From a virus (lineage: Duplodnaviria > Heunggongvirae > Uroviricota > Caudoviricetes), in IMG/VR virus record IMGVR_UViG_2917855067_000003, positions 1-10,082 of that record: DNA of 10,082 nt; one strand, given 5' to 3'. Each line of letters begins with the position of its first letter. Position 1 is the first letter of the stretch. The notes beneath the pieces were generated by a model. The model had not been told where the DNA came from, did not search any database, and worked only from the letters and a program-made list of their open reading frames with translations. Both the position numbers and the translations under genes were made by a program. Below, piece after piece: positions 1 to 10,082 of the stretch.

Positions 1-1095
1 TTATGTTGCTACGGGTTCGTCGCATTTCGGTAGCCAGTCGCCGTAGCTTTCCTCTTTCAGCGACAGATTGGTTTGTATCCCCTGCTTAGTGTGCCGCTTC
101 TCATAATTCAGGCCGTACTCTTTCAGCATCATGGGCAGCCCCAGCCCGAACATTTTCAGGCTGAGTACGTTCCTGTACCCGTTAGCCTCCATATAGGCCA
201 GATACGCGTGATAGAGATATTTACGATAATTACGCGGGATGATGCTGGCATTCCCCATAAACATCCCGTTGGTCTGCGGGAGCATTTCCAGATAGCCGCA
301 AAAATCAAACGTAGGGTCAGCATCGCGCTTGATGCTGAGCGCCTCGTCGGAATTCTGCTGTGACTGGAGCAGTGCGCGGGCTGCCATCGGGTCGCTGAAC
401 TTCTGCATGAGCTGGCGCACAATCACGGCCAGCTCGCGCGCAATTTTATCCCTGAGCTGCGGGTCGCGTTCCTCCGGCGCAATTTGCTCCGGGAAGTGAA
501 TAATCACCCGGCGACGTGACACACCACCGCTGCGGTCGGTGAAGCGCATGGGGTTATTGTTCACTGCCAGAATCACCGCCGGAATGTGTGTTGAGTACGG
601 GTTCTGGTATTTCGGGTCAACCGAGACCGCATCGCCGCCGGTGATGGCCTTAAGCCCTGCGCCGTCACCGCTCCATTTTTCCTGGTCAGGCAGACGGATA
701 AGCGAGAAGCCAATCAGGGAGGCACGCTTGCGCGGGTCTTCCAGCGTGTCGATGTCGGCTGACGTGGCGTTATCTTCCCCGGCAAGCAATGTCGCGATTT
801 CAGCCAGAATACTTTTGCCACTCCCGCCGGGACCGGTCACTTCGAGAAAGAGCTGCCAGTCGTAACGGTTCGCCAGCACCATAAACAGCGCGGCCAGAAT
901 CACGTCGCGTTTTTGTGGATTTTTACCGGCTGCACGGTCGAGCCAGCGCCAGAAGTTCGGCGCGTGCGTCCCCAGCCGTTTCCCCTTCCACCGGCGGGGT
1001 AAAATCCACATCGCACAGCGTGCGCAGCCAGTGCGATTTGTGGTGCGGGCTGAATACGCCGCTTTGGGTATCGAGTACCCCGTTGCGAAAGCCAA
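1..1095 (-). CDS. alpha: P4 alpha-type primase/helicase, C-terminal segment (SF3/D5-like helicase and origin-binding part); homologous part is about 4..975, stop codon at 1..3
   Basis: ORF-track translation contains Walker A GPGGSGKS and the long C-terminal region typical of P4 alpha. It lies in a different frame from 923..2335 and overlaps it. The ATG at 1095 is an ORF-caller start, not necessarily a biological one. Confidence 0.8.
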   Translation of the reverse strand: MAFATGYSIPKAAYSARTTNRTGCARCAMWILPRRWKGKRLGTHAPNFWRWLDRAAGKNPQKRDVILAALFMVLANRYDWQLFLEVTGPGGSGKSILAEIATLLAGEDNATSADIDTLEDPRKRASLIGFSLIRLPDQEKWSGDGAGLKAITGGDAVSVDPKYQNPYSTHIPAVILAVNNNPMRFTDRSGGVSRRRVIIHFPEQIAPEERDPQLRDKIARELAVIVRQLMQKFSDPMAARALLQSQQNSDEALSIKRDADPTFDFCGYLEMLPQTNGMFMGNASIIPRNYRKYLYHAYLAYMEANGYRNVLSLKMFGLGLPMMLKEYGLNYEKRHTKQGIQTNLSLKEESYGDWLPKCDEPVAT

Positions 1096-2335
1096 TCAGA
1101 CGGCGCGCCGGTGTATCCTGCTGCGGAATAATCAGTTTCAGGGTCTCCACAACTGAGGCGATTTTCCCCGACGAGAACGGGGCGCGCAGACGCTGGAATA
1201 AGTCAGCCACATTCCGTGAAAAAGTGGCGACAGGGATATTTTTCCAGATGCCGTTTTCATAGCGGGACAGGAGCTGGCCGTTCGCATCCACTGCCAGCGC
1301 TTCGCCGTAATGCTCATGCACCCGCAAAGCCTTGTCGCTGGCGCTCATGGCGGTAAATTCCGCCTCGCTCATGGTATCAAACGGACTTTGCGCCGGTGGC
1401 CGGATGGCGTCATAAATCGCTTTGCGTGTGGCTTCCTCGCCGTACTGTATAAACGCATCATTCCAGTCACCGAATACCGGCGGCAGGGCAACAACGCCCT
1501 CACAGGCGTCTGCGGCCGCAGCGGCTTTACTCTGGCCGTCGCCGTTAAGGTCACGGTCGGCAGCGAGCACAATCTGACAGGCCGGGGACTTCTGACGGGC
1601 AAGGCTCGCCAGAGAAAGGAGGTTCACGGAGGACAGTGCTACCATGACGGTTTCCCCGGTCAGGTGATGCACGGTGAGTGCAGTCGCATACCCCTCTGCA
1701 ATCCACAGGCGTTTTCCGGCCTGTTTTTTCCCTTCGATGGTATGGCATGCTCCTTTTACCGCCCCGCCTTTCAGGGTGCGTTTGAGACCGTCAGAATTGA
1801 TAAGCTGAAGGTTAACCAGTGCGCCGGTATCGTCATACAGCGGGACAACCACATCACCGGCGCGGAACGTCACGCCGCCGGTTTTGTGTGTGGCCGACAG
1901 TACCGGACATTCCCGGTCGGGGAAACCCTTTCGGGTCAGGTAGGCGTTGCCGCTGGCCGGTCGGGTTTTCTCCATGAGCCTGACGGCCAGTGCGGCCGCC
2001 GCTTTGCGGTCAGCCTCCGTTTCAGCCTCTGCGGCCGCAATCACTTCCGGGGCAACCGGCGGCAGATTGCCGGTCACGGCGTTCACCTTCCCGGCGGCCT
2101 CTGAGGGAGTCACGCCAAACACTTTTTCTACCAGCTTAAGCCCGTCACCCGCGCCGCATTGATTGCAGAACCACGTCCCGCGCCCTTCTTTATCGTCAAA
2201 GCGGAAACGGTCAGAGCCGCCGCATACCGGGCAGGACTGATGGCGGTTTTTAATTACTTTCACACCCAGCGCAGGGAGAATGCGCGGCCAGTGGCCGCAC
2301 GCCTGTTTTACCGTTTCTGTTACGTTCATTTTCAT
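923..2335 (-). CDS. alpha: P4 alpha-type primase/helicase, N-terminal segment (zinc ribbon and primase domain); ends prematurely at 923 unless a frameshift is corrected
   Basis: Translation from MKMNVTETVKQ contains the zinc-ribbon motif CPVCGGSDRFRFDDKEGRGTWFCNQCG. The ATG at 2335..2333 is preferred over 2386 because AGGGAGA lies 9 nt upstream. The frame stops at 923 while the homology continues in another frame. Confidence 0.8.
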   Translation of the reverse strand: MKMNVTETVKQACGHWPRILPALGVKVIKNRHQSCPVCGGSDRFRFDDKEGRGTWFCNQCGAGDGLKLVEKVFGVTPSEAAGKVNAVTGNLPPVAPEVIAAAEAETEADRKAAAALAVRLMEKTRPASGNAYLTRKGFPDRECPVLSATHKTGGVTFRAGDVVVPLYDDTGALVNLQLINSDGLKRTLKGGAVKGACHTIEGKKQAGKRLWIAEGYATALTVHHLTGETVMVALSSVNLLSLASLARQKSPACQIVLAADRDLNGDGQSKAAAAADACEGVVALPPVFGDWNDAFIQYGEEATRKAIYDAIRPPAQSPFDTMSEAEFTAMSASDKALRVHEHYGEALAVDANGQLLSRYENGIWKNIPVATFSRNVADLFQRLRAPFSSGKIASVVETLKLIIPQQDTPARRLIGFRNGVLDTQSGVFSPHHKSHWLRTLCDVDFTPPVEGETAGDARAELLALARPCSR

Positions 2336-2349
2336 CGTTGTTTTCTCCC

Positions 2350-2670
2350 TCAGTGCAGTACCGGTGCGGTGATATGACGGGCGCAAAGCTCATCCATCAC
2401 GGCCAGCCCGAGAAAGGACAGCGACGGGGCAGCTTTCAGTGGTCCGACTTCCATTAAATCTTCCAGCAGGGCACAGGCAATCTGACGGCCTTTTTCCTCG
2501 CCGTGCTGGCGCAGGTAGAAGCCCTCCAGCTCGGCGGCAATGGCGCTTTCCAGCGCGTCGAGGGTGAGGTGCGGGTAGCGGTGCTGGCGTTCGCACAGGG
2601 TCAGCCATGCACAGGCCACTGCGCGACGATACAGCGCGGCGCGTAATACGGGCGGTAATGGCTTTTTCAT
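2350..2670 (-). CDS. hypothetical protein (106 aa), P4-like leftward operon, immediately upstream of alpha
   Basis: ORF with SD GGGGAGGG upstream of the ATG at 2670. Its start overlaps the stop of the preceding ORF (ATGA), and it ends 14 nt before the alpha start. Function not recognised. Confidence 0.6.
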
Positions 2671-2894
2671 ACGTTACCCTCCCCGGTAAGCCACTGCTGA
2701 TTGCAGCGTTCGACCACGCCGTCGAGCTGGGCGGTCATGAGGTAAATCACGGAGGTGAGCTGTAACTGCTGCGTCGGGTCACGACGAACGGTGGCGCAGT
2801 CCTGCACCTGCATCAGGTTGCCGACGAGCTGGCCGACGTTGCGCATATGCTCCAGACATTCGAGGTCACGGGCGGTAATGGTGGTGTGTCTCAT
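2667..2894 (-). CDS. hypothetical protein (75 aa), P4-like leftward operon
   Basis: ORF with SD GGAGGTG upstream. ATGA overlaps at both ends indicate translational coupling. Function not recognised. Confidence 0.55.
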
Positions 2895-3085
2895 GCGCGC
2901 ACCTCCGCAACCGGCAGACGGCCAGCGAACGAGAGGACGTAATCGCGAATGAGGGAAAGGCGTGCGGCGTGCTCATCACCGGCAACGGTGCGGAGCATAC
3001 AAATACGGGGGGTACGGTCTGCGCGACGAACAGCGGCAAACACAAAGACAAACTGCGGGTGTGACGGGGTGAGGGTCGTAGCCAT
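2891..3085 (-). CDS. hypothetical small protein (64 aa), first gene after the putative leader terminator
   Basis: ATG at 3085 is preceded by a near-consensus SD (AGGAGG, about 9 nt spacing). The same frame stays open up to 3442, but that extension crosses a terminator hairpin and lacks an SD, so the short form is preferred. Confidence 0.5.
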
Positions 3086-3288
3086 AAGGGCAACCTCCTG
3101 TGAATAGCGGTTATTGCCACCACCGGAGTTCCTACGCTCATGGGTGGTGACCCGAACGGGGGTAGGAATACCGGCTTCACAGAATACCGGCCAGCCCGAA
3201 AGCTGCCCCGCCCGGACCACCATTATCTGACAGGGGCTATGGAATAAGCACCACAGCCCGAAAAATGGGTGTGCCTGAGCAACGACGT

Positions 3289-3311
3289 AAAAAAAGACGC
3301 ATGGCGCGTCT
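3289..3311 (-). terminator. rho-independent terminator for leftward transcription (P4 timm-like position)
   Basis: On the minus strand: stem AGACGC / GCGTCT (plus 3295-3300 and 3306-3311), 5-nt loop, followed by a run of 7 U (plus-strand A-run at 3289-3295). Confidence 0.5.
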
Positions 3312-3367
3312 GTTGTCGCCTGTGAATTACACGGGTTCCTACGCCCGGCTGCCGATTTTGCGGCAGC
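3289..3367 (-). ncRNA. candidate small structured RNA (position analogous to the P4 CI / C4-type immunity RNA)
   Basis: About 350 nt lacks a convincing coding region between alpA/vis and the next SD-bearing ORF. The minus-strand transcript would start with a 7-bp hairpin (plus 3348-3354 / 3361-3367), contain further imperfect stems, and end at the terminator. A possible -10 (TATAGT, plus 3374-3379) lies just upstream. No homology check was possible. Confidence 0.25.
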
Positions 3368-3438
3368 GGGAAAACTATACCTGGAAACGGCGAAAAGAAG
3401 CAAGCCAGAAAAAGGGGCTGTTTGCTGAACGGTCATCA

Positions 3439-3705
3439 TCATGCGTCATAGCCCCGGTTACGTTCGGCAATGCGATCCGCCATCCATGCAGTGATTTCAG
3501 ACTGCGCCCACGCCACATTTTTTCCGCCGAGGGAGATTTGTTTCGGGAAGGCTTCCCGGCTGATGAGGTCGTAAATGGTCGAGCGGGACAGGCCGCACAG
3601 ATGCATCACTTCGGGCAGACGGATAAAGCGCTCGTGAACGGTATCAGAAACCGGCATCAGCGGCGCGGCAGGGGCAGAAGACGGGGAAGAAAAAGCAGTG
3701 TGCAT
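3439..3705 (-). CDS. alpA: AlpA/Vis-family helix-turn-helix regulator (88 aa), matching the size of P4 Vis
   Basis: Translation contains the AlpA-family signature ([47 protein letters not shown]). SD GAGG lies upstream of the ATG at 3705. Confidence 0.85.
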
Positions 3706-3766
3706 CGGGCTACCTCACAAAGTCCATACAGTGCCGGTCGTGTCCGTCCGGCTTCGGGTAGCTCCT

Positions 3767-3795
3767 TATTATGTCTATATTTTTCCTCAGGTCAT
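3767..3795 (-). promoter_or_regulatory. candidate sigma70-type promoter for the leftward alpA/vis operon
   Basis: Minus strand reads ATGACC, a 16-17 nt spacer, then CATAAT/ATAATA, about 55-60 nt upstream of the alpA ATG. The -35 is weak. Confidence 0.25.
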
Positions 3796-3834
3796 GTGAG
3801 ATTTTCGGGGAAACAAACATTGACTTTTCGCTCT

Positions 3835-3871
3835 GGCAAACAAAGGCAAACGCTGGCAAACATATGCAAAT
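3835..3871. promoter_or_regulatory. four direct repeats at exact 10-bp phasing (GGCAAAC x3 and TGCAAAT); candidate regulator binding array
   Basis: GGCAAAC at 3835-3841, 3845-3851 and 3855-3861; TGCAAAT at 3865-3871. They sit in the divergent control region between alpA/vis and sid. Confidence 0.4.
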
Positions 3872-3873
3872 CA

Positions 3874-3889
3874 CTGCATTACAATGCAG
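3874..3889. promoter_or_regulatory. perfect palindrome CTGCATT-AC-AATGCAG; candidate operator
   Basis: 7-bp inverted arms with a 2-bp spacer, directly after the phased repeats and before an AT-rich stretch. Confidence 0.4.
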
Positions 3890-3971
3890 CAATTTCTATT
3901 TCTTTTAGTTATATATTTTTCATTTTTAATCAAAATAAAGTCTAAATGCTATAACCAGAGCAAAACAGGAG

Positions 3972-4105
3972 GGTGAACAGTGGTGAACAGACGGTGAACA
4001 GTCAGACCCTCAACTATTCACCCTTTAACTTACTGTATTAATTATCTTTTTATTTAAGGTGAACAGTGGTGAATAGTTATAAGTAAAAAAATAAACGGTG
4101 AGTAA
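3972..4105. repeat. iteron array GGTGAACA(G), the reverse complement of the P4 type I iteron TGTTCACC; ori/crr-like alpha binding region
   Basis: GGTGAACAG at 3972-3980, 3982-3990, 3993-4001 and 4058-4066; GGTGAATAG at 4068-4076; inverted copy CTATTCACC at 4013-4021; degenerate GGTGAGTAA at 4097-4105. Spacing is 10-11 bp within clusters, and an AT-rich stretch (about 3890-3960) lies alongside. Confidence 0.7.
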
Positions 4106-4152
4106 GGTTTTCCTGCGACCTTTCTCTGGCCAGCCGGTTTTTAAGGTCTGTT

Positions 4153-4170
4153 TGTGCCAGCATTCTGACA
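4153..4170 (+). promoter_or_regulatory. Ogr/Delta box (TGT-N12-ACA) of a Psid-like late promoter
   Basis: TGT at 4153-4155 and ACA at 4168-4170 are separated by 12 nt. The dyad centre is about 80 nt upstream of the sid ATG, consistent with a -55 activator site and a short leader. A weak -10-like CAGAAT lies near 4205-4210. Confidence 0.45.
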
Positions 4171-4242
4171 ACGGCAATGAATCGTGTTGTTGTGCAGGAG
4201 GCGTCAGAATCATTTCAGGTTGAACACACGGAGAACCTGAAC

Positions 4243-4986
4243 ATGAAACCCGAACTCATTATCAAAGCCATGCAGACCGTTATCAGTAAACAGGATGAAG
4301 GCGCGGAACAACGCATTGCCGGTGCGCTGGCCGCACTTAACGAAGCAAAAGATGCACACACGGCCAGCATGGGTAAACTCAGCGACATTGAGGCTTCCAT
4401 TCAGCGTTGTGAGCAGGAACGACAGACCGCCCTCAGTGAAAGTGCACAGGCCGAACAGGACTGGCGCAGCCGCCTTCGAACTCTGCGCGGCAACCTCACT
4501 CCTGAACTGAAAGCTGAACACAGTAAACGTATCGCCAGCCGCGAACTGGCTGATGAGTTCACCGGTCTGATTACCGAGCTGGAGAAAGACAAAAGTCTCG
4601 CCATGCTTGGCGCATGCTCCTCCGGTACGGCTTATATCAGCGCCCATGAAAAAGCATTCACCACTTACGCCAACAGCGAATGGAAGAAGGTGCTGGCCGG
4701 TATCAGCCCCGCACTGTTACGTGCCTTCCTGTTGCGTATACGGTCGCTGGAAATGAGCGGAGAAACCTCATCGCGTGCGACCGCGACACGTGAGCTGGGT
4801 GATGCCCTGAATCTGCAGTCAGCCCTGTATCATTTTGATATGGAGCAGGAGCCGGTCCTGTCCGTAACGGGCATGAATCGCCCGGTCATAACCGGGGTTG
4901 ATATGGCGCTGTTAAGAAGCCCGGCCAGACGGATGAAGCTTGCCGCTGAACTGGCTGCAAAATCCCACGAACAGGCAGAGGGCTGA
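4243..4986 (+). CDS. sid: Sid-like capsid size determination (external scaffold) protein, 247 aa
   Basis: Assigned by position as first gene of the sid-delta-psu operon, by its charged, helix-rich composition, and by a length near P4 Sid (about 244 aa as I recall). Start at 4243 has SD GGAG 9 nt upstream; the ORF-track start at 4177 would lie inside the promoter. Confidence 0.6.
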   Translation: MKPELIIKAMQTVISKQDEGAEQRIAGALAALNEAKDAHTASMGKLSDIEASIQRCEQERQTALSESAQAEQDWRSRLRTLRGNLTPELKAEHSKRIASRELADEFTGLITELEKDKSLAMLGACSSGTAYISAHEKAFTTYANSEWKKVLAGISPALLRAFLLRIRSLEMSGETSSRATATRELGDALNLQSALYHFDMEQEPVLSVTGMNRPVITGVDMALLRSPARRMKLAAELAAKSHEQAEG

Positions 4987-4989
4987 ATT

Positions 4990-5229
4990 ATGTTTCACTG
5001 TCCGTTCTGCAAAAAGACCGCGCACGTCCGTACCAGCCGTTATCTGTCGGAAAACGTCAAACAGCGTTATCACCAGTGTACCAATATCGAATGTTCGGCC
5101 ACTTTCCGCACCATCGAGTCGGTTGACGGTGTGATACGTGCCGCACCGGAGAAACCTGACCCCACCCCGGTGACGCCGCTGCCGCCGCGTAAAGAACAGG
5201 GCTGCTACAGCTCGCCGTTCCGGCATTAA
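4990..5229 (+). CDS. delta: Ogr/Delta-family zinc-finger late-gene transcription activator (single-domain, 79 aa)
   Basis: Translation MFHCPFCKKTAHVRTSRY...YHQCTNIECSATF has the Ogr/Delta Cys4 arrangement (C4, C7, C30, C35). It starts 4 nt after the sid stop, with SD GAGGG upstream. Confidence 0.85.
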   Translation: MFHCPFCKKTAHVRTSRYLSENVKQRYHQCTNIECSATFRTIESVDGVIRAAPEKPDPTPVTPLPPRKEQGCYSSPFRH

Positions 5230-5244
5230 TCAGGAGAGAGACAC

Positions 5245-5811
5245 GTGACCACTATGACAATACAGCAGGCCTTTGAGGCCTGTCAGGCAAACAAAAACAC
5301 CTGGCTGACACGTAAAGCCGAACTGGCTGACCTTGAACTTGAATACCGTGAACAGCTCCTTGCTGGTGACGAACAAATCCCGCGCAAAATGCAGGATTTG
5401 CGCGACAATATCGACGTGAAAAAATGGGAGATTAATCAGGCCGCCGGTCGCTATATCCGCTCACATGAGGAGGTGCAGCACATCAGCATCCGCAACCGGC
5501 TCTATGACTTTATGCAGCAGCACGGCGCGGAGCTGGCCGCCACGCTGGCGCCTGAATTGATGGGGTATAATGAACAGCTTCCCGTAGTAAAACAGAGCGC
5601 CATGCAGCATTCGGTTGATTATCTGCGTGAAGCCCTGTCAGTGTGGCTGGCCGCAGGTGACAAAATTAATTATTCCGCGCAGGACAGCGACATTTTAACG
5701 GCCATCGGATTCAGGCCTGATGCGGCTTCGCGGGATGATAATCGAGAGAAATTCACCCCGGCACAGAACCTGATTTACACCCGCCGACGTGCAGAACTGG
5801 TCGCACGGTAG
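5245..5811 (+). CDS. psu: Psu (polarity suppression protein; Rho inhibitor / capsid decoration), 188 aa
   Basis: Translation (..IQQAFEACQANKNTWL.., ..NQAAGRYIRSHEEVQHISIRNRL.., ..KINYSAQDSDILTAIGFRPDA..) closely resembles P4 Psu as I recall it. A GTG start at 5245 sits 8 nt after SD GGAGAGAG; the alternative ATG at 5254 is too far from the SD. Confidence 0.9.
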   Translation: MTTMTIQQAFEACQANKNTWLTRKAELADLELEYREQLLAGDEQIPRKMQDLRDNIDVKKWEINQAAGRYIRSHEEVQHISIRNRLYDFMQQHGAELAATLAPELMGYNEQLPVVKQSAMQHSVDYLREALSVWLAAGDKINYSAQDSDILTAIGFRPDAASRDDNREKFTPAQNLIYTRRRAELVAR

Positions 5812-5857
5812 CACGCGAAAAAATCCCCGAAAATTCCGCTATTTTTCCTGAAAAAAG

Positions 5858-5884
5858 CCATGCATCCATAAGGTGCATGGTTTT
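5858..5884 (+). terminator. candidate rho-independent terminator of the sid-delta-psu operon
   Basis: Stem CCATGCATCC / GGTGCATGG (one wobble, 4-nt loop) followed by TTTT at 5881-5884, about 47 nt after the psu stop. Confidence 0.45.
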
Positions 5885-5984
5885 GCATGCAAATCCCCGT
5901 ATTTTATTTCCCCCACCACGCCAGTACCGGCGCGGCCTGAGCCGGTTCATGCACCTGCATTAAAAGTGACCTCTTAAGCGGGCA

Positions 5985-6003
5985 GGCGTGGCGGGGAGAG
6001 CAT
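5985..6003. other. cos-like site (resembles the 19-nt P2/P4 cohesive end)
   Basis: GGCGTGGCGGGGAGAGCAT matches GGCGAGGCGGGGAAAGCAC at 16 of 19 positions. That P2/P4 sequence is recalled from memory and not verified. The site is downstream of psu, where P4 has cos. Confidence 0.4.
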
Positions 6004-6269
6004 TGCGCGCTGGAATAATAATTAATTATTTATTTTCTCGCTCTGTGTTTGTCATTGATGAGTGGCAATTCGTTGACATGCTGGAGAGATATAATGCTGT
6101 TTAAAAGGAAAGAAGCACTTCTGAGGCTTTTAGGTTAGAGGGGAAGTTAAGGCCGCCTTGAGGCGGCGAAAATTAGTCATTTTGGGTATCGAGGAGTAAT
6201 ATTAGGCTGAATGCCACATGCTCCTGAATTAGAACCTTGAGTGCGAGTTGCTACATAAATAAATGGAGC

Positions 6270-6950
6270 TTAAAAATGATTAATCAAGATTTGATTTTTT
6301 TTAATTGCTCGTCTACTCCAGTGCTCTGTGATGTTTTGAGTGAAGTCGGGACGAACTATTTTTGCTCTAAAGTCCACTGCTTCAAGAGATTCTACTCTCA
6401 AATATATTCCTTCTGATATTTCATCGCTGAATTTTGATTTTTTTATATAAGAAGATAACTTGTTTAGTTCAAAGAAACCTTCGTCAAGAAAAGGAACGCA
6501 ATGAAGGTTTGCATTTGATATTATTTCGTTTCTTTGAGGAAGTGGTAAAAATATTTTTCTTTTCTTATCGAATACATCAAATGCTAAAAAATAGTCAGGT
6601 AAGCGGGTGTAGTGAATAGAATGTTTCGCATAACACCATTCCCCAAATATAATGTATTGGTCTCGAATGTAGTCAAAAAGGTTGTCGCGGTTGTAATTTA
6701 ACCAGTCAGGAAGCATTTTCCATTGGCCATTAAAAGGTTGATGTAAAAAAGAACCCCTATTTTGAAGGAGTAAGTCTGCATTACCATTAAAGGAAATGCC
6801 TAGATTAGCTCCGTCAATTTTCTCTTCTATTATGGTTTTTTTAGTTGAAAGCAATAATCGTTCTTTATCTGAAATGACCTTGTCATCCCTGACGTTAGGA
6901 TGGTAAAAAATATGTGGAGTGGACGGGAATTTATATAGTTCATCTTCCAT
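6270..6950 (-). CDS. Rnl2-type RNA-ligase-like nucleotidyltransferase (standalone adenylyltransferase domain, about 226 aa)
   Basis: Translation carries ligase motifs in the right order and spacing: motif I EEKIDGAN (KxDG), motif III FGEW, motif IIIa FDVFD, motif IV EGIYLR, motif V RAKIVR. ATG at 6950 has SD AGGAAG 9 nt upstream; the ORF-track GTG at 6977 has no SD. It is AT-rich and overlaps the upstream gene by 11 nt. Confidence 0.7.
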   Translation of the reverse strand: MEDELYKFPSTPHIFYHPNVRDDKVISDKERLLLSTKKTIIEEKIDGANLGISFNGNADLLLQNRGSFLHQPFNGQWKMLPDWLNYNRDNLFDYIRDQYIIFGEWCYAKHSIHYTRLPDYFLAFDVFDKKRKIFLPLPQRNEIISNANLHCVPFLDEGFFELNKLSSYIKKSKFSDEISEGIYLRVESLEAVDFRAKIVRPDFTQNITEHWSRRAIKKNQILINHF

Positions 6951-7479
6951 TTGGAAACTTCCTATTATATGTATCACTTATGAGTTTTTCGTCAGCAAAA
7001 TGAACCGTTATGCCTACATCAGCAAGAGATTCTTTCCAGCCCCACCATTTACTATCAGTTGCTTGAAAAATAGGCGGTTTGTCTACGTGTGCGTATGACG
7101 TGGCTACAAATTTTCTATCCGATAAATCAAAGTTTGTCAGGCCTTCATGTACAGGGAACTCCTCATAGCTAGTTTCGGTTTTTGTAATTCTTACGATGTT
7201 TTTATCAGGGAATTTCCATTGGTTAGTGTAAATCCATTTCATAAATTTATCACCAACGCCAGGGGCTCCACTCATGCTTAAATTTGAGCGATACTCTTCA
7301 ACTATTTCTTGTGCTTCATCAATAACTAACCCACCATTTGCAATTGCCTTTTCTATTATTTCAACACACTCTAAAACACAGCTTAGAATATCATCTGGAA
7401 TGTTTTTTATATCTGTGTGCATATTAGCTGTAACAGCAACATTTGTATCAATTAAAAAAGCAGCAGGTAATTTATTCAT
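6940..7479 (-). CDS. PIN-like domain protein (putative nuclease), 179 aa
   Basis: N-terminal AAFLIDTNVAV resembles the first PIN strand with its conserved Asp; further acidic positions (DEAQE, ATDSKW, ISDTY) fit the PIN pattern. SD GAAGG upstream; start overlaps the ATPase stop (ATGA). The domain call is by eye. Confidence 0.6.
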   Translation of the reverse strand: MNKLPAAFLIDTNVAVTANMHTDIKNIPDDILSCVLECVEIIEKAIANGGLVIDEAQEIVEEYRSNLSMSGAPGVGDKFMKWIYTNQWKFPDKNIVRITKTETSYEEFPVHEGLTNFDLSDRKFVATSYAHVDKPPIFQATDSKWWGWKESLADVGITVHFADEKLISDTYNRKFPNGR

Positions 7480-8861
7480 TTAGATGTACCTTCTTTTTCT
7501 TTTATTCTTCTTTTTAACGCTGATTTTGCTTGCTCTGTAATGTCTGTTAATTCATCACCAAAGAAATTATCTGGCCAGTTGAGGATATTTCCAAATGTAT
7601 CGATTTGCAACGGTGTTAATTTTGGGGTTGAAGATGAAATGTCAGAGAAGTACGCGGAAACTTCCTCGGATTTTATTTTGTCTTCTGCTATTCTCCTTTG
7701 CAGTCTGCGAAGGAAATGCTCTGAGTGAGTTTCTATAATTAGCTGTATGCCTCTTGATTTTCCATTTTCTCGTGAACGGATAACATCGATCATAACATCA
7801 GCAAGCACTGATTGTGCTTTTGGGTGTAAATGAATTTCGGGTTGTTCCATCAAAATTATTGAGCCTGGTTGAGCGTAAAAGCATTGTACTAGAACTGGAA
7901 GAACCTGAGAAACCCCAAACCCAACATCTGGAAGGTCTACCCACTGTTTAGAGCCTTTAGTTTTAACTTTGACTTCATATTCTTGACGATGTTCTGAAAT
8001 TGCTTTTACAGAAAAACTATCAATTAAGTCCATTTGTTTTAATTTTTCAGCGATGATTTCTTCTAATGGTTTATTTTTCTTTTTATAATCAAGGCCGATT
8101 CTTCTTTCTTTTGATGAAAGAATGGCGGAAATTGCATTTTCACCTGCATAACCTACGCTTTCTGGTGAAATTCCAGTCCATGGATATAATCGTTCAGGCT
8201 TATTTCTCATTGGCCCTAAGTAACATACTGAACGGAATAGCTTTTCATGCATTAGATTGATGTCTTGCACAAAATCAGCATTTTGATGGTAAGCTACGAC
8301 TTCCTCAGGGAAACCATAAAATCTAACTACATCTTTTATCGCCCAAACCCTACCCTTCTGTCGAGTTAGAGTGAAATTGTTAGTTTTGATTTTATAATTT
8401 GACTTAGCGTCACGAACAAGTCCTATAGATACATCATCTTTTTCTTTCTGATAGAATGTATATGAGAATCCATTGACATATAAGCTATTATTCTCAGCAT
8501 TAAAAGATATCTCAGATTTAAAATGGCATATTTTCGATAAGGATATAATGCTGTCTAATGATGATTTAGAGTATAATTCATCTATTGACCAAGAGTACTC
8601 AAATGAGATGTTCTTGTTAACGTCTCTCATGTTAACCATGTCTTGAAATGAGCCCAATTGTACTGCTGAGTTTTTACCTCCTGGGTAGAATGGGGTTTTT
8701 CTATCAGATGATTCAACCGTTTGTTTAAGCATCATGAGAAGCTGGCCAATACTAGATTTACCAGAGCTATTTGTTCCAAAGAAAAGAGTGATAGGTGACA
8801 TTTTGATTTCACCTGTATCAGTCCAAACCTTAAAATTTTCTACTTTTAATGTTTTAAACAT
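7476..8861 (-). CDS. ABC-type ATPase (AAA_15/AAA_21, OLD/RecF-like), 461 aa
   Basis: Walker A GTNSSGKSS near the N-terminus, Walker B region ILMEQPEIHLHP and H-loop ETHSEHF near the C-terminus, with a long insertion between, as in defence-associated ABC ATPases. SD AAGGA upstream; ATG is only 3 nt after the int stop. Confidence 0.85.
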   Translation of the reverse strand: MFKTLKVENFKVWTDTGEIKMSPITLFFGTNSSGKSSIGQLLMMLKQTVESSDRKTPFYPGGKNSAVQLGSFQDMVNMRDVNKNISFEYSWSIDELYSKSSLDSIISLSKICHFKSEISFNAENNSLYVNGFSYTFYQKEKDDVSIGLVRDAKSNYKIKTNNFTLTRQKGRVWAIKDVVRFYGFPEEVVAYHQNADFVQDINLMHEKLFRSVCYLGPMRNKPERLYPWTGISPESVGYAGENAISAILSSKERRIGLDYKKKNKPLEEIIAEKLKQMDLIDSFSVKAISEHRQEYEVKVKTKGSKQWVDLPDVGFGVSQVLPVLVQCFYAQPGSIILMEQPEIHLHPKAQSVLADVMIDVIRSRENGKSRGIQLIIETHSEHFLRRLQRRIAEDKIKSEEVSAYFSDISSSTPKLTPLQIDTFGNILNWPDNFFGDELTDITEQAKSALKRRIKEKEGTSK

Positions 8862-8864
8862 TTC

Positions 8865-10082
8865 TTATCCTTTGCTTTTAGATTTTATGATGGAAGCATT
8901 TTGGATTTCATCACCCCACCAAGCTAATAAATCACTACGTTGTTTTAAATAATTTGCACGGTTATATGCTCTTCTGACTTCATTTTTATCTGTATGTGCC
9001 AAAGATGATTCAATTATATCAGCGTTGAAACCAGCTTCATTCATAGTTGTACTCGCGATAGAACGTAATCCATGTGCGACTAATTTACCACCATAACCTA
9101 TTCGCTTCAAAGCGGCATTAGCCGTCTGGCTATTCATAGGTTGCTGTGGATCATTTCTACTTGGAAAAATATATTCTCTATGTGCACTGATTGGCCTCAT
9201 TACTTCCAGAATCTCTAATGCTTGAGTAGAAAGAGGTACGATGTGTTCCCGTTTTGCCTTCATCCGTTCGGCTGGGATCGTCCAGAGTTTGGCATTGAGA
9301 TCGATCTCTGCCCATCGTGTACCTGAAGCCTCAGAAGGTCGCACGAGAGTCAGAAGCTGCCATTCAATAAGACAGCGAGTCGAAACAGACAGATTCGACA
9401 TCACCAAAGAGCGCATTAGCTTCGGCAATTCTTCCGGCCGAAGGGTCGGCATGTTTTGCTTTTTTGGTTTCTCAAATGCCATTCCGACACCTGATGCCGG
9501 GTTTGCATCAATCAGGCCAGTGTTGACGGCGTAGATCATGATTTCGTTAATACGTTGTACCAGGCGGCGAACCGTCTCTAATGCGCCACGTGCTTTGATT
9601 GGCTCCAATGCTTCAACTATCGTTCTGGCCTTAATTTCCTGAACAGGTATTGCGCCTATTGCGGGGAACACGTCCTTATCTAAAGAGCGCCATATATCTT
9701 TCGCGTAGTCTTCAGTGACGCTTTTGCTCTTCATTTTGAACCAGTTGGCGGCCACAGTTGAGAAAATGCTATCCAGCTCAATCTGACGCTGTTCTGATGC
9801 CTGCTCTTGTTGCTGTTGCGGATCCATACCCTGCGCGAGTGTGGTTAAGTGCTGGTCGCGTATCTGACGAGCTGCTGCGAGAGTAAGGGCAGGGTATGAG
9901 CCGAGACTCAAATTAGTTCGGCTGCCACTGACCGGACGTTGATAGCGGAAGCGCCAGAGTTTTTTACCGGTGGTTTTGACGAGCAAGAACAGGCCGTCAC
10001 CATCATGAAGGGTGAAGTCTTTTTCCCGAGGTTTGGCTTTAAGGATTTCGTTGTTAGTGAGGGGGCGTGTGAGGCGCGCCAT
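8865..10082 (-). CDS. int: P4-type tyrosine integrase (405 aa)
   Basis: N-terminus MARLTRPLTNNEILKAKPREKDFTLHDGDGLFLLVKTTGKKLWRFRYQ is the P4-integrase arm-binding domain; C-terminus has HGLRSIAST and RRAYNRANY (catalytic Tyr). The start codon is the last 3 nt of the window. Confidence 0.95.
   Translation of the reverse strand: MARLTRPLTNNEILKAKPREKDFTLHDGDGLFLLVKTTGKKLWRFRYQRPVSGSRTNLSLGSYPALTLAAARQIRDQHLTTLAQGMDPQQQQEQASEQRQIELDSIFSTVAANWFKMKSKSVTEDYAKDIWRSLDKDVFPAIGAIPVQEIKARTIVEALEPIKARGALETVRRLVQRINEIMIYAVNTGLIDANPASGVGMAFEKPKKQNMPTLRPEELPKLMRSLVMSNLSVSTRCLIEWQLLTLVRPSEASGTRWAEIDLNAKLWTIPAERMKAKREHIVPLSTQALEILEVMRPISAHREYIFPSRNDPQQPMNSQTANAALKRIGYGGKLVAHGLRSIASTTMNEAGFNADIIESSLAHTDKNEVRRAYNRANYLKQRSDLLAWWGDEIQNASIIKSKSKG

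Follow-up and report, generated by a model that had tools for sequence, protein, structure and literature searches.

ATP-binding cassette (ABC) ATPases are frequently paired with nucleases in anti-phage systems, among them OLD, Gabija, Septu, PARIS, Menshen, and HEC-01 to HEC-04, and it is debated whether the signal in such systems is carried by the binding of ATP or by its hydrolysis. We examined a locus of this kind in a 10,082-nucleotide stretch of viral DNA (Caudoviricetes; IMG/VR record IMGVR_UViG_2917855067_000003, positions 1 to 10,082; hereafter the window), where positions 6270-8861 encode a PIN-domain protein, an RNA ligase, and an ABC ATPase that, by alignment and structural modelling, carries a glutamine in place of the catalytic glutamate. 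The closest described system is HEC-03 (Hma-embedded candidate 03) from Pseudomonas cichorii ATCC 10857, which comprises an ABC ATPase and a PIN protein, cut the plaquing of several phages, requires both genes for this effect, and is toxic on induction (Payne et al., bioRxiv 10.1101/2024.01.29.577857). Menshen is a further relative, whose ATPase NsnB has a Walker B motif altered from DE to EN, an arginine in place of the Q motif, and GxG in place of the SGG signature (PMC12065111). A literature search for biochemical work on NsnB returned only that bioinformatic paper.

The open reading frame (ORF) at 7476-8861, named an ABC ATPase in an initial annotation made from the DNA letters alone, proved to be exactly that at exactly those coordinates: it lies on the minus strand, encodes 461 amino acids, and in Pfam matches AAA_15 with 103.6 bits (cut-off 32.1) and AAA_21 with 72.2 bits (cut-off 27). 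Residues 1-456 align to positions 1-456 of the 458-position PADLOC model for the HEC-03 ATPase (PDLC04148) with an E-value of 1.3e-124, and matches to homologues reach E = 1e-293. Because the Pfam, PADLOC HEC-03, and homologue matches agree, the ORF represents a real gene rather than a chance reading frame. PADLOC returned weaker matches to NsnB of Menshen (1.6e-64), to PDC-M55A, and to AriA of PARIS (1e-29). The adjacent 179-residue protein matches the PADLOC model for the HEC-03 PIN partner (2e-25). In PADLOC the ATPase model bears the label “B” and the PIN model the label “A”, opposite to the naming in the preprint text.

The locus at 6270-8861 is therefore a divergent, previously undescribed member of HEC-03 that occupies the cargo hotspot of a P4-like satellite. 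Like the P. cichorii pair, it encodes a DUF3696-containing ABC ATPase with an FMEQPEIHLHP-type Walker B motif followed by a VapC-like PIN protein, and both PADLOC models match; the ATPase and the PIN protein share 37% and 29% identity, respectively, with their tested counterparts. A full-length match to the ATPase model and an adjacent, co-oriented PIN partner are both present, whereas the two-gene composition is not, since the locus here adds an overlapping RNA ligase gene to a system that has none in P. cichorii. The settings also differ, the P. cichorii genes being embedded in an Hma system and those of the window in a satellite hotspot. The HEC-03 family has thus already been named and partly validated, and the DE-to-EN change in NsnB has been published (PMC12065111); the ATPase–PIN–RNA ligase form seems to be the part not yet described for HEC-03.

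Two other assignments were considered and set aside. Menshen membership was rejected because no NsnA-type gene lies between psu and int and because the 179-residue partner is a single PIN domain. NsnB shares with the ATPase of the window the AAA_15 and DUF3696 architecture and a remodelled active site, but has asparagine where the HEC-03 ATPase family has glutamine. Its effector NsnC likewise begins with a PIN-like domain, which docks on DUF3696 in models; that domain, however, is catalytically dead and fused to a separate toxin domain, whereas the PIN protein here stands alone and has its acidic residues. Menshen moreover requires a ParB/DUF262 sensor, NsnA, and no ligase has been reported for it (PMC12065111). 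PARIS membership was rejected since the cassette contains no DUF4435/Toprim gene and the AriA match (1e-29) is weak compared with that to HEC-03.

The initial annotation also proposed that glutamine occupies the usual catalytic glutamate position of this ATPase. The Walker B peptide that it quoted, SIILMEQPEIHLHP, is indeed encoded at 7821-7862 on the minus strand, and the OLD motif that it named, hhhEEPExHLHP, is found as IIEEPEMYLHP in the Thermus scotoductus OLD nuclease (6p74). When the single ATPase sequence was compared with the Protein Data Bank (PDB) using phmmer, ILMEQPEIHLHP paired with this OLD peptide without gaps, and a longer stretch of the ATPase, ILMEQPEIHLHPKAQ, paired with IIEEPEMYLHPQAQ of the same OLD protein, again ungapped. 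In the same way, the motif paired with ALDEPTTNLD of wild-type Chaetomium Rad50 (5da9) and with ALDQPTTNLD of its E-to-Q form (5dac), MEQP falling on LDEP and LDQP. A profile built from an alignment of 66 family members gave a concordant result against the PDB: the EQ of the family corresponds to EE in OLD, to DE in wild-type retron PtuA (9kjx and six other entries), and to DQ in PtuA entries 9nnb and 9nnk, which differ from the wild type at this site, and the profile scores the Q form of PtuA above the wild type (35.2 versus 32.1 bits). The residues that follow are also in register, with PEIHLHP of the ATPase aligned to PEMYLHP in OLD and IELHLHP in PtuA.

The AlphaFold2 model of the ATPase (predicted local distance difference test score (pLDDT) 93.2; predicted template modelling score 0.90) places a β-strand at residues 335-339 (IILME) that ends at E339, making Q340 the next residue. 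In ABC ATPases, the first residue past the Walker B strand is the site of the catalytic glutamate. Three independent lines, drawn from sequence comparison and from the model, thus agree that Q340 occupies the catalytic-glutamate position and that E339 is the Walker B acid. The initial annotation had named a conserved glutamate at the catalytic position as the result that would speak against its proposal; the alignments place none there, as E339 is the Walker B acid and E342 is shared with OLD and PtuA. Since both OLD and PtuA have an equivalent of E342 in addition to a canonical catalytic glutamate, E342 is not a displaced catalytic residue. We regard the identification of the protein and the assignment of residue 340, taken jointly, as highly probable.

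One might object that the alignment is off by one residue, such that the near-invariant E339, immediately before Q340, is the catalytic glutamate and the metal-binding acid of Walker B is missing. We rejected this shift, to which we give almost no credence. Residues I335, I336, L337, and M338 precede E339 in the expected pattern of four hydrophobic residues and an acid, and position 338 is always hydrophobic in the family; the match to OLD, PtuA, and Rad50 runs gapless through P-E-x-x-L-H-P; and the modelled strand ends at E339. A glutamate is also the usual Walker B acid in OLD-type ATPases, which normally carry it in place of aspartate (EE in 6p74).

Other elements of an ABC ATPase are recognizable in the ORF, namely Walker A, the head fold, the Walker B acid, PExxLHP, and the switch histidine of the H-loop; the catalytic glutamate after the Walker B acid is absent, with Gln340 in its place. 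Foldseek searches with the model returned GajA, PtuA, Smc4, Rad50, and SMC heads as best matches (E about 1e-11). The regions of the LSGGQ signature and the Q-loop hold conserved DVGFGVSQ and YLGPxR (R219) sequences, whose equivalence to those motifs leans on the description of NsnB.

The initial annotation had regarded this Walker B region as unusual, a description that did not hold: glutamine is the rule in the family. The hMEQPEIHLHP motif is kept in all 120 of the closest cluster representatives (62-96% identity), and a HMMER scan without a word index, run against 1.84 billion representatives, yielded 21,056 relatives at E ≤ 0.001. Unbiased residue counts were taken from an alignment of the best 150 representatives of 50%-identity clusters, restricted to the 144 that are full-length; these are 33-60% identical to the ATPase of the window. 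In this alignment of homologues, the check that the initial annotation had proposed, position 340 is Q in 130 sequences, H in 10, E in two, N in one, and G in one; the ten histidine-bearing relatives read EHPE. E339 is glutamate in 141 and aspartate in three, position 338 is L in 91, I in 21, F in 18, M in 11, and V in three, and the downstream residues P341 (143/144), E342 (140/144), H344 (142/144), and H346 (143/144) are equally constrained. The same holds for the Walker A residues G29, N31, and G34 (141/144 each) and K35 (142/144), for R219 (143/144), and for G314 (143/144), G316 (141/144), and Q319 (142/144) of the putative signature equivalent. At the H-loop, E377, H379, and E381 are each present in 143 sequences and S380 in all 144, forming an ExHSE motif that is specific to this ATPase family, OLD having STHS and PtuA TTHS at the corresponding place. 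The two glutamates that surround His379 may represent a relocated catalytic or metal-site element. Gln340 is thus a hallmark of a known system rather than a peculiarity of the gene at 7476-8861, and its value as a discovery is modest. A full-text literature search with Walker B motif strings returned no paper.

A site this well conserved is also informative about whether the domain binds nucleotide at all. The joint deviations from the ABC consensus (glutamine for the catalytic glutamate and, putatively, arginine for the Q-loop glutamine and GxG for SGG) could be taken to mean that the ATPase domain is a pseudoenzyme, a dead scaffold that binds no nucleotide and merely holds the PIN protein. 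We rejected this reading as very improbable, given that the P-loop (K35 in 142 of 144), E339, H379, and the D-loop-type HLHP are near-invariant at 33-60% identity and that a Walker A mutant of the related HEC-04 lost defence. Because its nucleotide-binding motifs are near-invariant across such distances, the site appears to be in use rather than decayed. The ATPase retains all the parts needed to bind ATP-Mg while lacking the canonical general base.

The glutamine itself is maintained. In related loci it is encoded by CAG in 42 cases and CAA in 35, counts from a set that was found in part with an EQPE search pattern and is biased at residue 340 but unbiased with respect to the codon. As glutamine is dominant, glutamate lies one substitution away, and both glutamine codons are used, we conclude that selection maintains Gln340, and glutamate at position 340 appears from these sequence comparisons to be selected against.

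Glutamine at this position is a classical laboratory substitution. In E-to-Q variants of ABC ATPases such as Rad50, cohesin, and PtuA, ATP binding persists while hydrolysis is slowed, and the ATP-engaged dimer is trapped. Engineered Rad50 (5dac) and cohesin SMC1A-EQ (8ro9, 8rod, and 8roa) carry the change at the same position as the ATPase described here; those proteins, however, are laboratory mutants of motor and repair proteins, whereas the glutamine here is natural and kept across thousands of proteins. PtuA (Septu, retron type I-A), GajA, and the P2 and Thermus OLD proteins share with the family the ABC head fold, the [D/E]-x-P/I-E-x-x-L-H-P motif, and the role of an ATPase sensor controlling a nuclease, but they carry a canonical catalytic glutamate (EE or DE), with glutamine only as a variant in some PDB entries (9nnb and 9nnk), have Toprim or HNH effectors rather than PIN, and lack DUF3696. 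The DUF3696 family therefore amounts to a natural experiment, in which a hydrolysis-stopping laboratory substitution has become fixed in thousands of proteins, one system of which is known to defend, and it makes the question of binding versus hydrolysis in defence ABC ATPases directly testable.

Since the ATP-Mg site is kept and the general base is missing, ATP may serve as a long-term ligand that keeps the ATPase dimer closed rather than as fuel, and the enzyme would then act as a slow-turnover or non-hydrolysing switch or sensor. The initial annotation had suggested as much, and the suggestion is reasonable in view of the behaviour of engineered E-to-Q ABC ATPases and of the near-invariant nucleotide-binding motifs. 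We place the probability of this switch reading at roughly 0.5. An ATPase with glutamine at this position can serve in defence, because the validated P. cichorii ATPase has FMEQPEIHLHP as well: according to the supplementary table of the preprint, it carries GSTVFMEQPEIHLHP, followed by IIESHSEH at the H-loop, and the preprint text passes over the glutamine (bioRxiv 10.1101/2024.01.29.577857). Three points weigh against the switch reading. E342, E377, E381, H379, and the histidine found at position 340 in 7% of relatives could support hydrolysis in another way; the preprint left undecided whether ATP binding or hydrolysis is what matters (bioRxiv 10.1101/2024.01.29.577857); and the set of related loci used for the codon counts was collected by a scan whose pattern included EQPE[IL]HLH, which makes it unfit for motif frequencies.

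The first of these points defines the main rival explanation, in which the catalytic base has been relocated and the ATPase still hydrolyses ATP by means of E377, E381, E342, or, in a minority of relatives, His340. In a variant of this scheme, substrate-assisted catalysis would turn on His379 as the linchpin. Q340, on this view, would merely tune the rate. E377, E381, and H379 are as conserved (143 of 144 each, with E342 at 140) as such a role would predict, ExHSE sets the family apart from the STHS of OLD and the TTHS of PtuA, E377 closes the strand that carries the H-loop in the AlphaFold2 model, histidine, present at position 340 in 10 of 144 sequences, can serve as a base, and conservation of the whole site would also suit a working enzyme. 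Against this, E342 is found equally in OLD and PtuA alongside a canonical glutamate and so is no compensating replacement, and neither glutamine nor asparagine can act as a base, yet glutamine dominates. Glutamate, moreover, is one mutation away but occurs in only two of 144 sequences, a rarity that would be puzzling if rapid hydrolysis were an advantage. E377 is kept in both of the Glu-340 sequences at hand. We consider a relocated base unlikely on balance.

If the ATPase is a switch, the PIN protein would be what it controls. In a set of 80 loci of ATPase relatives, taken from species-representative genomes and searched at the level of ORFs with the window proteins and profiles, a PIN homologue lies immediately downstream of the ATPase in 76. 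The 179-residue protein gave no match in Pfam, NCBIfam, or PHROG and no sequence match in the PDB; a structural model computed from 35 homologues has a pLDDT of 95.5. Two independent alignments show the acidic residues that an active PIN site should have (D11, D54, E62, D118, D121, and D142) to be invariant or almost so, and the protein is probably an active, stand-alone PIN nuclease. It differs in one of these acidic positions from its validated counterpart, as the P. cichorii PIN protein begins VVETNVA, with glutamate as the first acidic residue, whereas the protein of the window and 70 of 70 relatives in the locus set have DTN. In locus L022, a single ORF at 4926-6470 has matches to the PIN protein and to no more than residues 1-363 of the ATPase, and either is a natural fusion that lacks the H-loop and DUF3696 or reflects a frameshift or deletion in a metagenome assembly.

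By analogy with AlphaFold 3 models of the NsnB–NsnC complex (PMC12065111), the DUF3696 region of the ATPase is likely to be an effector-docking module. Under the switch reading, the closed ATPase assembly would hold the PIN RNase inactive through this region, in the manner modelled for NsnB–NsnC and by analogy with Septu, PARIS, and Gabija. The RNase might then be freed or activated by a phage cue or by a drop in ATP, leading to cleavage of tRNA or rRNA and to a stop in translation.

The third gene is of more interest than the ATPase motif. The ORF at 6270-6950 matches RNA_ligase (PF09414) with 106.4 bits against a cut-off of 27, and all 43 aligned ligases share K53-I-D55-G56 (motif I, KxDG), E113, D134, E189-G190, and K206 without exception, which points to a catalytically intact enzyme. 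A ligase homologue directly follows the PIN gene in 43 of 81 loci (the 80 related loci and the window's own), often with overlapping stop and start codons, and these loci are found in Desulfobacterota, Nitrospirota, Spirochaetota, Planctomycetota, Verrucomicrobiota, Clostridia, Acidobacteriota, and Proteobacteria. Ligase genes are found at every level of ATPase similarity (5/6, 19/32, and 18/41). The association also holds in the reverse direction: three of three ligase homologues, picked for their long contigs (Lachnospiraceae, Desulfobacter, and Aminivibrio; 48-51% identity), sit in an ATPase–PIN–ligase cassette, and the three cassettes are inserted among unrelated housekeeping genes. The ligase goes unmentioned in both the HEC-03 preprint (bioRxiv 10.1101/2024.01.29.577857) and the Menshen paper (PMC12065111). 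A literature search found no description of the triad, which the surveys of Krishnan (2020) and of Burroughs and Aravind (2016) may mention.

PIN nucleases depend on metal ions, and their cleavage is expected to yield 5′-phosphate and 3′-hydroxyl ends. RNA ligases join such nicks directly, without end-healing, as was shown for the products of P2 OLD (PMC12445682). The locus encodes no end-healing enzyme (kinase or phosphatase), and because these ends need none, a lone ligase fits the role of a repair antidote. The co-transcribed ligase could thus reseal the nicks made by the PIN protein, either buffering leaky activity or permitting recovery. The anticodon nuclease PrrC and the Pnk/Rnl1 enzymes of phage T4 offer a partial parallel, in that a defence nuclease cuts RNA and a ligase reseals it; there, however, the ligase is borne by the phage and beats the defence, whereas here it lies within the defence operon. 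Neutralization of a PIN or HNH nuclease by a co-encoded RNA ligase has been proposed for other conflict operons (cited in PMC5499597); the systems concerned differ from ours in pairing an ATP-grasp ligase with other ATPases rather than a PF09414 ligase with a DUF3696 ATPase. If the conserved ligase is an antidote that works by repair, it would be a different safeguard for a toxic RNase and would predict that cells can survive the defence. We hold this repair reading tentatively, at somewhat less than even odds.

The distribution of the ligase weighs against its being a required part of the system. It is missing from 37 of 79 related loci, none of which has an alternative conserved third gene, and the validated P. 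cichorii system defends without it; the ligase is therefore accessory rather than essential. The same facts lend some weight to another role, given that half of the family, the validated system among them, defends with no ligase, so that it is not needed for cell survival. It might instead be an effector or a signal generator, joining or circularizing RNA pieces released by the PIN nuclease or adenylating a target, or a counter to the RNA-cutting weapons of rival phages, and some sources do call the subfamily “ATP-dependent RNA circularization protein”. Its fixed place after the PIN gene, with frequent overlap of stop and start codons, argues instead for a product–substrate relation with the nuclease, and ligase-mediated neutralization has been proposed for the other systems noted above; we think a role other than antidote improbable.

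Combining the parts, the three-gene form of the system may be an RNA immune module of a “cut and reseal” type gated by ATP. In it the glutamine-bearing ATPase, by nature poor in hydrolysis and locked shut by ATP, would restrain the RNase, and the ligase would continually reverse nicks that are stray or made after infection. A phage cue, or falling ATP, would free the nuclease and at the same time disable the repair. If true, such a module would produce a reversible, non-suicidal arrest of translation, with a repair enzyme as antidote in place of a protein antitoxin. As a complete scheme we consider it doubtful.

Table 1 Coordinates of the cassette genes, ATPase motifs, and satellite features in the window.
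Feature	Positions	Strand	Remarks
ABC ATPase, 461 amino acids	7476-8861	−	AAA_15/AAA_21 head and C-terminal DUF3696; HEC-03-type ATPase subunit
Walker A/P-loop GTNSSGKS, K35	8754-8777	−	From translation; fits GxxxxGK[ST]
YLGPMRNKP, R219 in place of the Q-loop glutamine	8196-8222	−	Putative, by homology to NsnB (PMC12065111)
Signature-motif equivalent DVGFGVSQ, GxG for SGG	7905-7928	−	Putative; GxG variant known from NsnB
Walker B and D-loop-type motif SIILMEQPEIHLHP	7821-7862	−	E339, Walker B acid; Q340, catalytic-Glu position (by alignment and model)
Gln340 codon CAA	7842-7844	−	Single substitution from GAA (Glu)
H-loop strand QLIIETHSEH	7716-7745	−	Switch His379 between E377 and E381
DUF3696 C-terminal region	7533-7676	−	Residues 396-443; PF12476, 5.6e-08
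VapC-like PIN-domain protein, 179 amino acids	6940-7479	−	Presumed RNase effector; start overlaps ATPase stop by 4 nucleotides
ATP-dependent RNA ligase family protein, 226 amino acids (235 if GTG at 6977 is the start)	6270-6950	−	Overlaps end of PIN gene
Tyrosine integrase	8865-10082	−	Phage_integrase, Phage_int_M, Arm-DNA-bind_3 (Pfam); one hotspot edge
psu (polarity suppression protein)	5245-5811	+	Pfam Psu, 4.9e-88; other hotspot edge
ORF in P4 sid position, 269 amino acids (286 in source annotation)	4177-4986	+	Weak DUF4607 only
C4 antisense RNA (78.3 bits), isrK, a1/b1 C4 target elements	3140-3380	−	P4-like immunity region
Alpha primase	1-2386		
delta			Ogr/Delta, 8.7e-21 (Pfam)

The window as a whole is a P4-like satellite, with psu, delta, the integrase, the primase, and the C4 RNA all in evidence (Table 1); the ORF in the sid position (4177-4986) has no significant Pfam match. 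The interval between psu and int is a known hotspot for anti-phage cargo in P4-like satellites (PMC9122126), and here it contains the three cassette genes only. GC content is 33-38% in the cassette (about 6000-9000) and 54-63% in the satellite core, and the low-GC region continues into the integrase gene at its 3′ end. Only 3 nucleotides separate the stop of int from the start of the ATPase gene, and the cassette may be transcribed through from int. A megablast search of complete Escherichia coli genomes returned no match to region 6000-9000, and in the source contig, from the enterobacterial assembly GCA_004745295.1, the element is integrated beside smpB with the same gene order. In that contig (L001, 17278-17386), a gene with PvuRts1I-like and SRA domains starts just beyond the primase end of the satellite; it is of the type of a modified-DNA-dependent restriction enzyme and could be another defence gene, placed at the border of the element.

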